Of a DNA stretch of 64,000 nucleotides, positions 24,176-26,315 are shown one piece after another (positions within the stretch are counted from its first letter, which is position 1; each line of letters begins with the position of its first letter). The DNA is from Escherichia coli (GTDB lineage: Bacteria; Pseudomonadota; Gammaproteobacteria; Enterobacterales; Enterobacteriaceae): the NCBI RefSeq assembly GCF_022846255.1, contig NZ_AP025682.1. The stretch is one strand, 5' to 3'. The notes beneath the pieces are model-generated. The model worked only from the letters and a program-made list of their open reading frames with translations. It was not told the DNA's origin and did not search any database. The translations under genes were made by a program, and so were the position numbers.

Positions 24176-24203
24176 TTCGTTATGTCTCATGCAAAATAAA
24201 TAT

Positions 24204-24227
24204 CCTCCGGCATAGCCGGAGGTTTTT
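24204..24227. terminator. hairpin CCTCCGGC-ata-GCCGGAGG plus T-run: IS200 right-end hairpin, probably also terminating the toxin transcript
   Basis: Perfect 8-bp stem read from sequence, 29 bp after the toxin stop; same design as the split left-end hairpin. Confidence 0.6.
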
Positions 24228-24303
24228 CAAATGCGCCTATAAGGCTCTCTTACCAGCCGCGCCCTAACAGGCGCACACGATCTGACATTTGCATCCAACT
24301 TCG

Positions 24304-24762
24304 TTACTTACGGCCCGTAAACGGGCTGCCCGGATAGGGAATCGATAACTGCTCTCCCATTTTATCCTCTTCAAGCTGGTGCTTTATGTAATCCTGTATC
24401 TTCGCCGTGTTCTTACCCACCGTATCGACGTAATACCCTCTGCACCAGAACTCCCTGTTCCTGTATTTGAATTTCAAATCACCAAACTGCTCGTAAAGCA
24501 TCAGACTGCTTTTCCCTTTCAGATATCCCATAAAGCCGGATACGCTCATTTTGGGCGGGATCTCCACAAGCATATGGATATGATCTGCACAGCATTCAGC
24601 TTCCAGAATCCGTACACTTTTCCACTCACACAGCTTTCTCAAAATACAGCCTATTGCTCTACGCTTCTCTCTGTAGAACACCTGTCTTCGGTATTTTGGC
24701 GCAAATACTATGTGATATTTACAGTTCCATCGGGTGTGCGCTAAGCTCTTTTCGTTCCCCAT
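24304..24762 (-). CDS. tnpA: IS200 transposase TnpA (Y1 HUH transposase)
   Basis: 152-aa ORF MGNEKSLAHTRWNCKYHIVFAPKYRR…HIHML…, essentially the IS200 TnpA sequence as I recall it; start trimmed from the track ORF. Confidence 0.92.
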   Translation of the reverse strand: MGNEKSLAHTRWNCKYHIVFAPKYRRQVFYREKRRAIGCILRKLCEWKSVRILEAECCADHIHMLVEIPPKMSVSGFMGYLKGKSSLMLYEQFGDLKFKYRNREFWCRGYYVDTVGKNTAKIQDYIKHQLEEDKMGEQLSIPYPGSPFTGRK

Positions 24763-24768
24763 TGGGAC

Positions 24769-24837
24769 CCCCTTTTGATTTCTTGTTTGACACTTGCAGT
24801 TGCCAGACCGCAAGGTGTTTTAACAAATCAAAAGGGG
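24769..24837 (-). promoter_or_regulatory. IS200 leader stem-loop sequestering the tnpA Shine-Dalgarno
   Basis: 13-bp perfect inverted repeat CCCCTTTTGATTT / AAATCAAAAGGGG (24769-24781 and 24825-24837) with the AAGGGGG Shine-Dalgarno in the arm next to the ATG. Confidence 0.7.
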
Positions 24838-24878
24838 TTTTAATAACTGGCTCAAAGCTGAAAGCTTTCCGGAACCCC

Positions 24879-24889
24879 CAGCCTAGCTG
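24879..24889. repeat. IS4 target-site duplication, left copy (CAGCCTAGCTG)
   Basis: Identical 11-mer abuts both IS4 termini. Confidence 0.9.
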
Positions 24890-26315
24890 TAATGCCAGTC
24901 AGTTAAGCAACTGACTGGCTCTTTTTCGGGGCTGTGGGGTATTTCCAGGGCCTCTCCTTTACCACTCTCGGGAAGGCCCTTTCCCTTCTTGTCGGTAATT
25001 TCACAAGTTGTCCCATACTTGCAAGATCGCGCATCAGCTCCGGTATACGTCCCGGTGAAGCGCCCTGCAATGTCATCAGCATTCTCATCACCATTCCACA
25101 TGATTCTGAGAAACTCAGTTGATTCGGCCAGTAACCTTTCAGATGTTCCGCCATTTTAATCATCTGATATCTCACCAGATTATAAGCCAGTAAGACACCC
25201 CACAGCTCTTGCTCCACAAGCTCCGGTTTTTTACTTCTCAGCGTCAGCCTGCTCAGTTGCATCGTCTGTTTTATCTCCCTGTATCCCAGTTCGATTTCCC
25301 AGCGATGACTGTACAGATCCGCCATTTCTCCTCCGGGGAAGCGCATGGCGTCCGTCATCGACGTCAGCAGATGGCAGACTTTTCCTTTGCGCGTCACGGT
25401 CAGCAGGCGGGCTGTCACTTCATTTCCCAGTCCCGGCCACTTTTTTCGTGCCTGCGGGCTGGTTTTCAGCTTCACCAGATGATCGCCTTTACCCAGTTTT
25501 CTGATCTCTTCATATTGCGCTCCCTTTCTGAGAGGTATCATCCAGTGGCGGTGTTCTCCCGCCAGGCTCCAGGCATTTAACAGTCCCAGTGAGTAATAAC
25601 CTTTATCCATTAACGTCAGAGTGTTATCGCCGGTTTGTTCTATAAGTTGCTCAGCAAGCTCATTTTCGCTGTTCTTCATCGTGCCGAAGGCTGCAGCCGT
25701 CAGCAGATGGCTGGTCAGTTCCATCTGGCAGACCATTTTGACCTGCGGGTAGAGCGCCGGGTTCCCGGCATGTGTCTGGCGGGGGAAGGCTGCATCGTTC
25801 TCTGGTGTATCCGGTGTGCGCCAGAACACACCATCGATGGCCAGCAGGGTCAGGCCGCACCAGTGCGGATGCGGCGTGGCGTTATGCCAGAGCTGCGCTG
25901 TTTTCGTGAACACGCGGCGGACAGCCTCACTTCCCAGGCGCTGGCGGGCCTGAATAACGGCACTGGGGGCAACGAAGGGGCGATTGCCCGGCAGCATGAT
26001 GTCCAGGCGATTCACAATCTGGTGAAGAGGTTCTTTACGCTCAAGCGCCATGCCAACAATACACCAGACCATCATTTCGAGGGGAAGACGGCGCTTGCGT
26101 AGCGTTACAGTACCTGATTCGGCAAGGCAACGAGAGATGAGTTCGGGGTCGAGGTAATCCCCCAGAGAAGTCAGTGGGTTACGCAGAGAATCGTAACGGG
26201 ATACCAGATCAAGAGCCTGTCCAATGTGCATAAAAAAATCCGGAAACAAGTGAGCGTTTCCGGATTCTTACACAGCCACTGGATCGGTCAACTGATCCTT
26301 AACTGATCGGCATTA
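24890..26315 (-). mobile_element. IS4 insertion sequence, complete (1426 bp)
   Basis: 18-bp terminal inverted repeats TAATGCCAGTCAGTTAAG (24890-24907) and TAATGCCGATCAGTTAAG (reverse complement of 26298-26315), 16/18 identical; 11-bp flanking direct repeat; single long transposase ORF. Confidence 0.95.
24903..26231 (-). CDS. IS4 transposase
   Basis: 442-aa ORF starting [34 protein letters not shown]…, recognised as the IS4 transposase; start trimmed from the 448-aa track ORF. Confidence 0.93.

Follow-up and report, generated by a model that had tools for sequence, protein, structure and literature searches.

The locus raises the question of what an intact IS200-type transposase gene is doing beside a copy of IS4 in the 64-kb window (the whole 64,000-nucleotide stretch of Escherichia coli DNA analyzed here), and of what the second insertion sequence has done to the first. 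The original prediction described an IS200-family element at 24195-24900, kept silent by a leader hairpin that hides its own Shine-Dalgarno and silenced further by IS4 inserted upstream of the leader. We consider it very probable that the locus is a 711-bp IS200C located in the T-run just after the flgL terminator, translationally silenced, whose left-end hairpin was later broken by IS4. The identity of the element, its boundaries, the nesting, the loss of the hairpin, the pairing of the Shine-Dalgarno, and the catalytic residues are established directly in what follows.

Identity of the element and its transposase

The tnpA gene (24304..24762, minus strand; ORF read from 24762 to 24304) codes for a Y1/HUH transposase of 152 amino acids that matches Pfam Y1_Tnp (PF01797) over its full length (E = 1.7e-37). 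The protein is identical to the IS200C family transposase of record L001 and to RefSeq IS200C TnpA (100% identity), and it shares 144 of its 152 residues with Salmonella IS200F TnpA. Both motifs on which the original assignment to IS200 TnpA had been based, HTRWNCKYHIVFAPKYRR and HIHML, are present in the translation, and H61-I-H63 and Y125-IKH-Q129 align with the DHIH and YIEEQ motifs of the TnpA structures 2ec2 and 2f4f. Neither the HUH motif nor the catalytic tyrosine has been lost (H61, H63, and Y125 are all retained in the alignment); the published mutant that lacks catalytic activity carries its change at Y125 (Ellis 2015). At the DNA level, the element is 99.9% identical over 705 nt to annotated E. 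coli copies of IS200C, which is found in 3174 of 5426 complete E. coli genomes. Within the element only the tnpA ORF gave a family match, and there is no tnpB. The element is IS200C, a member of the IS200 group of the IS200/IS605 family.

An IS4 nested inside IS200C

IS4 (24890..26315, minus strand) is 1426 bp long, lies in the same orientation as tnpA, and does not differ at any position from the IS4 copy in record L014. It has the features of its family: a length of about 1.4 kb, terminal inverted repeats of 18 bp (TAATGCCRRTCAGTTAAG, positions 24890-24907 and 26298-26315), a target duplication of 11 bp within the family's range of 11-13 bp, and a DDE transposase that begins with the N-terminal domain typical of IS4 (448 amino acids, ORF 26249..24903; Pfam Nterm_IS4, PF13006, and DDE_Tnp_1, PF01609). 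The two copies of the duplication, at 26316..26326 (CAGCCTAGCTG on the plus strand) and 24879..24889, both correspond to IS200C nt 18-28 in a numbering fixed by the nt 12-34 hairpin described in Ellis 2015, and they are spaced by 1437 bp, the sum of 1426 and 11. IS4 is therefore nested within IS200C and does not adjoin it upstream of the leader, as had been proposed; its insertion point, after nt 28, lies inside the nt 12-34 hairpin. Nucleotides 1-17 are displaced by 1437 bp, and both the left-end hairpin and the promoter region (bp 1-40) are divided. When IS4 and one copy of the duplication were removed in silico, the left end became identical to that of the intact IS200C copies L002 and L003.

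IS200C thus consists of two fragments on the minus strand. The left one (26316..26343; nt 1-28, TGTGCACAGAAAACCCCCAGCTAGGCTG) contains the left-end hairpin's 5' arm, cut off by IS4, and its outer limit at 26343 is ambiguous by about 2 nt inside a T-run. The right one (24195..24889; nt 18 to the end, 99.9% identity) comprises the leader, tnpA, and the right-end hairpin. Of the limits given by the original prediction, the right end at 24195 holds to within about 2 nt; the left limit at 24900 does not, since 24890-24900 belongs to IS4 and nt 1-28 lie 1.4 kb away.

Comparison with an empty site (GGGCA-T7-GCATGAG in record L013, seen in 686 genomes) gives an ancestral length of 711 bp. The seven T residues of the empty site equal in number the T5 at the left of the occupied site plus the T-run bases at the right end, so IS200C inserted without a target-site duplication, and it has no terminal inverted repeats. 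The insertion site is the T-run directly 3' of the flgL terminator hairpin, which lies outside the element (26349..26375, minus strand). In none of the 5426 complete E. coli genomes was this flgL-terminator site found occupied.

A leader stem-loop that hides the Shine-Dalgarno

The 5'UTR of tnpA contains a stem-loop (24769..24838, minus strand; IS200 nt 69-138) with a lower stem that pairs 24825-24837 with 24769-24781 and an upper stem at approximately 24798-24822, in agreement with the structure line of Rfam STnc490. The inverted repeat of the lower stem was found at the predicted coordinates; it is perfect over 13 bp, with 94% complementarity over 16 nt. The first six bases of the Shine-Dalgarno AAGGGGGU (24767..24774, minus strand) are inside its proximal arm, and six of the eight are paired in the lower stem. 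Both the MFE and the centroid structures retained this stem in three transcript models, the native leader folded with a z score of -4.1 (0 of 200 shuffles were equally stable), and the hairpin was maintained in folding models of IS4 read-through transcripts. The Shine-Dalgarno was paired in every fold tried. The Rfam family STnc490 (RF01405), whose gathering score is 56, matched with 120.5 bits and over model positions 1-124 of 124. Its mispaired positions are confined to the first model hairpin (IS200 nt 12-34), because the 5' arm of that hairpin has been replaced by IS4.

The arm sequence is identical to that of Salmonella IS200, in which mutations of the lower stem increased the toeprint 20-fold and tnpA-lacZ expression 50-fold (Ellis 2015). 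The mutated positions, -69 to -75, correspond to 24831-24837, and the same work quotes an identical Shine-Dalgarno sequence. Published work bears out the original statements on translational repression of IS200 tnpA and on IS200-derived small RNAs in Salmonella. It is exceedingly improbable that the 13-bp repeat is a product of chance or a feature of the DNA that plays no part in translation. The one observation in favor of that reading is the missing covariation support: 24 of 26 predicted pairs had no double change when the leaders of IS200C, IS200F, and IS1541 were compared with one another, with a variant from Salmonella, and with a plasmid relic. With a leader that hardly varies between IS200C, IS200F, and Yersinia IS1541, covariation offers the translational role no independent support and speaks neither for nor against it. 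A perfect 13-bp repeat whose loop is at most 60 nt long is expected about 0.06 times per 64 kb (64000 x 60 / 4^13), and the folding z score, the 120-bit covariance-model match, and the mutational evidence on identical sequence all speak against an accident. The folding models indicate that the Shine-Dalgarno is sequestered by the stem-loop and that the translation block is intact in this copy, a silencing mechanism that would be carried over from Salmonella IS200, whose hairpin is identical.

By homology, an antisense RNA, art200 (STnc490), would reinforce this silencing together with Hfq. The putative art200 gene (24753..24843, plus strand; about 90 nt) was located by transferring the coordinates of Ellis 2015, with a start by homology at IS200 nt 153/154. 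The start region, from nt 145 to about nt 200, is nearly the same as in Salmonella IS200F, and candidate promoter hexamers could be read by eye (TTTACA at 24718-24723 and TAAGCT at 24742-24747). The Rfam match was on the tnpA-sense strand only, whereas STnc490/art200 has been described as antisense (Ellis 2015); hence, the match marks the locus and not a particular transcript.

Transcription into the leader

The tnpA promoter of IS200 has been placed within bp 1-40, with transcription starting at approximately nt 40 (Ellis 2015 and other IS200 literature), and the nt 12-34 hairpin acts as a bidirectional terminator that stops most outside transcription from reaching tnpA (Ellis 2015). We infer the effects of IS4 on both transcription and mobility from the arrangement of these parts. 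Here, nt 18-39 are still in place beside the leader. The transposase gene of IS4 is directed into the leader and stops 13 nt before the junction; no terminator-like site was found on the tnpA strand between that gene and tnpA, and the hairpin at the IS4 end is followed by a T-tail on the opposite strand only. Leader transcription could fall after the insertion because the native promoter is split, or it could rise, since IS4 points the same way as tnpA and no terminator shields the leader any longer.

The claim that IS4 makes the silencing tighter is consequently not supported in the form first given. That IS4 deepens silencing by moving the native -35 region away from the start of transcription, with leader and tnpA RNA then scarce or absent, is possible, if somewhat doubtful. 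It would follow from a promoter within bp 1-40 with its start at about bp 40 once bp 1-17 have been moved 1437 bp away, and a sigma-70 scan detected no promoter at the IS4/IS200C junction; the same scan found none on an intact copy either, the native promoter being weak and ill-defined in the literature. On the other hand, with promoter elements undefined and nt 18-39 retained, the displacement may not be decisive, and the hairpin that blocks most impinging transcription has been destroyed while the IS4 transposase gene points into the leader, with no T-tail from the IS4 hairpin on that strand.

The opposite outcome, in which IS4 read-through raises leader transcription and yields a chimeric IS4-5'tnpA RNA whose translation stays blocked, shifting the output from transposase mRNA to regulatory RNA, seems rather unlikely as well. 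Co-orientation and the lost terminator would favor it, the Shine-Dalgarno hairpin and the upper stem fold unaltered in a 221-nt model, and the 5' tnpA fragment of Salmonella is a functional sRNA (Salmonella IS200 literature). In the same model, however, IS4 positions 24930-24940 pair with the surviving 3' arm, and the long new hairpin might terminate the transcript or be processed.

Loss of the left-end hairpin and its probable effect on mobility

Only the loop and the 3' arm of the nt 12-34 hairpin remain next to the leader (24873..24889, minus strand). The intact hairpin, CCCCCAGC-TAG-GCTGGGGG, has a predicted stability of -18.7 kcal/mol; neither of the split halves folds back into it, and no intact copy was found anywhere in the 64-kb window. 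The right-end subterminal hairpin that it resembles, CCTCCGGC-TAT-GCCGGAGG (24204..24222, minus strand; -15.9 kcal/mol), is intact and terminator-like on both strands. The copy therefore lacks the contiguous intact subterminal hairpins at both ends that TnpA-mediated excision needs, the right one being whole and the left one split, which argues against a mobile IS200C and not against IS200C by descent.

Published accounts (PMC3201880, PMC6006769) describe TnpA as recognizing subterminal imperfect palindromes at both ends. The left-end hairpin is presumed to be such a binding site, by analogy with IS608 and ISDra2 and because it resembles the right-end hairpin. This copy has probably lost TnpA-mediated excision and is probably immobile in cis because IS4 splits that hairpin. 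Of the two consequences considered for the insertion, loss of mobility is better supported than extra silencing. IS200 has been described as essentially immobile even when intact (IS200 literature), so the additional loss may matter little.

The history that we favor runs as follows. A 711-bp IS200C entered the T-run just 3' of the flgL terminator with no target duplication, its intact tnpA kept translationally silent by the stem-loop over the Shine-Dalgarno. Later an IS4 entered the left-end hairpin, in its loop and stem and after nt 28; the insertion duplicated nt 18-28 and moved nt 1-17 about 1.4 kb away. The hairpin was abolished both as bidirectional terminator and, by the IS608 analogy, as the palindrome recognized by TnpA, and the bp 1-40 region with its weak tnpA promoter was split. 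TnpA excision has very probably been lost with translation still blocked, and the leader may now be transcribed, if at all, mainly by read-through from IS4.

Recurrence of the IS4/IS200C junction

The same junction was found in approximately 320 of the 5426 complete E. coli genomes (roughly 6%), and the identical junction with its 11-bp duplication occurs at at least five different loci. This distribution might suggest an IS200C::IS4 composite that moves as a unit, an explanation that we tried and rejected as very improbable. Six records have IS4 at the same position in the opposite orientation. The IS4 of record L001 has 11 differences from the window IS4 and 1 from an unrelated IS4, while the IS200C parts have a single difference. 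At the wzzB-hisIE site, where L001 has the composite, 27 genomes contain an uninterrupted IS200C, and the left-end hairpin required for TnpA action is broken in the composite. The evidence instead gives good support to repeated IS4 insertion into the IS200C hairpin, from different IS4 lineages.

IS4 is an insertion sequence with a strong target preference, and its target consensus is a palindrome flanked by an A-run and a T-run. The target in IS200C, AAAACCCC|CAGCTAGGCTG|GGGGTT, resembles an unrelated IS4 target within the bamD terminator, AAAAAAACGG|CAGCTCAAGGGCTG|CCGTTTT. A literature search on IS4 nested in IS200 and on IS4 target rules, with the 1980s IS4 target papers outside its coverage, returned nothing relevant. 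A wider reading, which we regard as unlikely, is that the left-end hairpin is a preferred landing site where independent nested insertions end mobility and give IS4-driven read-through over the 5'tnpA/art200 module; with the terminator and weak promoter swapped for IS4 read-through, that module would come under the control of another transposon.

Significance and comparison with known systems

Both the IS200C element and its Shine-Dalgarno-hiding hairpin were already known; the finding as first written therefore matters little, since the element is a textbook one and the regulatory hairpin has been published. For annotation, the locus should be described as one split IS200C (26343..26316 plus 24889..24195) with a nested IS4 and not as two neighboring insertion sequences, and this copy should not be counted as potentially mobile. 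IS4 insertions at the same phosphodiester positions provide a natural case of structure- or sequence-specific targeting in which one insertion sequence disables another, and the junction may be useful for marking lineages or as a defined substrate in work on IS4 target choice.

Compared with other E. coli copies of IS200C, whose close relatives are Salmonella IS200/IS200F and Yersinia IS1541, this one is alike in DNA (99.9% identity), in its single 152-aa Y1 gene, in the lack of a target duplication, in its leader stem-loop and Shine-Dalgarno, which are identical, and, after removal of IS4, in its end hairpins; it differs by the IS4 after nt 28 that splits the left hairpin and the promoter region. 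Control of tnpA in Salmonella IS200 involves the stem-loop on the Shine-Dalgarno, the antisense art200 (STnc490), Hfq, and a processed 5'tnpA sRNA (Ellis 2015, 2017; Trussler 2025). The lower stem, the Shine-Dalgarno, and its spacing to the start codon are the same here, the art200 start region is nearly identical, and STnc490 is matched over its full length, although in this case the upstream terminator and promoter context has been replaced by an IS4 end, and the E. coli-like host is without the 5'tnpA targets (invF, SPI-1). The nested IS4 resembles that of E. coli K-12 (insG) in its 1426 bp, 18-bp terminal repeats, Nterm_IS4 and DDE domains, and target duplications of 11-14 bp starting with CAG, but its target is the hairpin of another insertion sequence. 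With the "peel and paste" elements IS608 and ISDra2, IS200C shares the TnpA fold family (HUH and a tyrosine on the C-terminal helix), subterminal hairpins at each end, and the lack of target duplication; unlike them, it has no tnpB, and its left hairpin doubles as a transcription terminator.

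IS4 is nested inside IS200C

The original prediction placed IS4 upstream of the tnpA leader, but IS4 actually lies inside IS200C, flanked by an 11-bp duplication of IS200C nt 18-28. The two direct copies (plus-strand sequence CAGCCTAGCTG) occupy 24879-24889 and 26316-26326, 1437 bp apart (1426 + 11), and bracket an IS4 of 1426 bp with 18-bp terminal repeats and an intact transposase gene (448 aa) on the same strand as tnpA. With numbering anchored on the published nt 12-34 hairpin (Ellis 2015), IS4 sits after nt 28, so that on the minus strand nt 1-28 occupy 26343..26316 and the remainder of the element, from nt 18 onwards, occupies 24889..24195. 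Removing IS4 and one repeat copy in silico gave a left end that matches at every base the uninterrupted IS200C copies of two other genomes, and the 5' arm of the first hairpin of the Rfam STnc490 model is mispaired precisely where the IS4 terminal repeat starts.

Comparison with the empty site (the flgL terminator, T7 and then the end of a GNAT toxin gene, found in 686 E. coli genomes) gives an ancestral IS200C of 711 bp without target duplication, its ends, which fall in the T-run, being uncertain by about 2 nt. The arrangement IS200C::IS4 at the flgL terminator (window 23260-26450) was not found among the complete E. coli genomes of the collection, whose best matches lie at other loci and are limited to the 2.16-kb composite.

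The nt 12-34 hairpin (AACCCCCAGC-TAG-GCTGGGGGTT; -18.7 kcal/mol when intact) has been described as a bidirectional rho-independent terminator that guards tnpA from impinging transcription (Ellis 2015). Neither of the two halves left by IS4 can fold into it, and no intact copy was found anywhere in the 64-kb window. A hairpin closely resembling it (CCTCCGGC-TAT-GCCGGAGG) is located at the right end (24204-24222), and two papers on the IS200/IS605 family (PMC3201880, PMC6006769) describe TnpA as recognizing subterminal imperfect palindromes at both ends. Because the left hairpin is broken, the right end is so similar and the family enzyme recognizes palindromes at both ends, we infer that TnpA is no longer able to excise this copy; loss of mobility is likely.

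The left-end hairpin is an IS4 hot spot

About 320 of 5426 complete E. coli genomes share this IS4/IS200C junction; as a yardstick, 5106 IS4 3' ends were counted in 2586 genomes. Among the few junction-bearing sequences sampled (L001, L004, L005, L006, L014 and the window), the 11-bp duplication recurs unchanged at five distinct IS200C loci: the flgL terminator (window), wzzB-hisIE, an Rpn/IS66 island, glcA-gspK and ecnB-sugE. Movement of IS200C::IS4 as a composite was considered and rejected on the evidence of both IS4 orientations, the IS4 haplotypes and uninterrupted copies at an occupied site. A synthetic inverted-IS4 junction matched six records at 100%, in plasmids and chromosomes. At wzzB-hisIE, IS4 differs from that of the window at 11 sites and from an unrelated bamD-terminator IS4 at only 1, while the IS200C parts differ from the window at 1 site, and 27 genomes carry an uninterrupted IS200C there. 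These inverted junctions, mismatched haplotypes and uninterrupted copies show the recurrent junctions to be independent in-situ IS4 insertions. With at least five loci, both orientations and two IS4 haplotypes among the sampled insertions, the IS200C left-end hairpin is a natural IS4 hot spot. The bamD IS4 site (AAAAAAACGG/CAGCTCAAGGGCTG/CCGTTTT) and the IS200C hairpin (AAAACCCC/CAGCTAGGCTG/GGGGTT) are built alike, which suggests that the latter mimics the terminator-like palindrome preferred by IS4. A literature search of limited coverage found no paper on IS4 nested in IS200C, which is not proof of its being unreported.

At glcA-gspK in E. coli strain 2/0 (L006, ~3541-3710), the composite is shortened, IS200C ending about 40 nt into tnpA and being fused to partial gspK, which indicates a deletion beside the composite.

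All IS200C, IS200F and IS1541 copies examined lie directly 3' of a GC-rich terminator-like hairpin and T-run, with a left flank ending in TT (window 26349-26375 [flgL]; L001 ~1520-1552; L002 557-578; L003, L007 and L008), suggesting that such a context is a preferred target. Between rne and flgL, the window also carries a pair formed by a TacA-like antitoxin (DUF1778, Pfam TacA1) and a GNAT toxin (23346-24175, plus strand), a module that 686 of 5426 E. coli genomes have at this site and the others lack. The toxin stop codon is 19 nt from the IS200C right end, whose hairpin may now be the terminator of the toxin gene.

The leader hairpin sequesters the Shine-Dalgarno

The proposal that a 13-bp repeat buries the Shine-Dalgarno, repressing tnpA translation, held up. 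The lower stem is a perfect repeat on the minus strand (24825-24837, CCCCUUUUGAUUU in RNA; 24769-24781, AAAUCAAAAGGGG), and the first six bases of the Shine-Dalgarno (AAGGGGGU, 24774..24767, minus strand) are within the proximal arm. Folding of the leader from its published start at window 24867 (about nt 40) gave -42.9 kcal/mol (z = -4.1; equalled by 0 of 200 shuffles), and the lower stem and upper stem-loop were present in both minimum-energy and centroid structures. Rfam STnc490 (RF01405) matched 24772-24895 at 120.5 bits (gathering score, 56), with the lower-stem helix in its structure line. Covariation adds no support, since the leader sequence is almost invariant. The lower stem is the same in Salmonella IS200F and Yersinia IS1541; in Salmonella, mutations at -69 to -75 (window 24831-24837) increased 30S toeprinting 20-fold and tnpA-lacZ 50-fold, independently of art200 and of Hfq (Ellis 2015). 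Both the observation and its main interpretation are thus correct, and both had been published beforehand.

The STnc490 match is confined to the tnpA-sense (minus) strand and begins ahead of the tnpA transcription start, at IS200 nt 12. By the published definition (Ellis 2015), STnc490/art200 is an antisense RNA that runs from nt 153 to about nt 64; what the Rfam model represents appears to be the locus, not the transcript as mapped.

The further claim that IS4 deepens the silencing is unsupported as stated. The weak, undefined tnpA promoter is within bp 1-40 of IS200 (published) and is therefore also split by IS4; yet the IS4 transposase gene ends 13 nt short of the junction, directed into the leader, and a T-tail follows the IS4 terminal hairpin on the opposite strand only, so that, judged from sequence, leader transcription could either fall or rise. 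When a 221-nt IS4 read-through model was folded, the Shine-Dalgarno hairpin was unchanged, and tnpA translation should remain blocked whichever promoter feeds the leader. In the same model, IS4 ACCCCACAGCC (24930-24940) is paired with GGCUGGGGGU (24873-24883, both minus strand), the 3' arm left over from the split IS200C hairpin, and the two form with the IS4 terminal hairpin one long composite stem-loop.

Sequences resembling the IS200 left end and leader (about 75% identity), with both hairpins and a Shine-Dalgarno-like region and no tnpA following, were found on an E. coli IncF plasmid adjoining iss (L010 1201-1336), a Klebsiella plasmid (L011 1201-1304) and many E. coli plasmids (matches H109-H117). 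A relic is one possible explanation, a derivative consisting of the leader alone another. Other Rfam matches in the window, to the rne 5'UTR element (19712-20048), SraB (17683-17851), the PyrC leader (44744-44793) and the ES036 sRNA (53924-53966), are expected of an E. coli-type chromosome.

Relation to known IS200 elements

What the check adds is a revised anatomy, in which IS4 splits IS200C from within, a probable loss of mobility and the IS4 hot spot. The 152-codon tnpA (24762 [ATG] to 24304, minus strand) encodes, as predicted, an IS200-type transposase: its product matches the full Pfam Y1_Tnp profile (PF01797; E = 1.7e-37), and its motifs H61-I-H63 and Y125-I-K-H-Q129 align with DHIH and YIEEQ of solved IS200-family TnpA structures, Y125F being the published catalytically dead control (Ellis 2015). 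The protein is 100% identical to the RefSeq "IS200/IS605-like element IS200C family transposase" and the DNA 99.9% identical to IS200C copies; IS200C occurs in 3174 of 5426 complete E. coli genomes, with as many as 36 sites in a single genome. TnpA of Salmonella IS200F differs from it at 8 of 152 positions and that of Yersinia IS1541B at 9. The element, its transposase, the Shine-Dalgarno-sequestering hairpin and the small RNA connection were all previously known, and in these respects the copy is ordinary.
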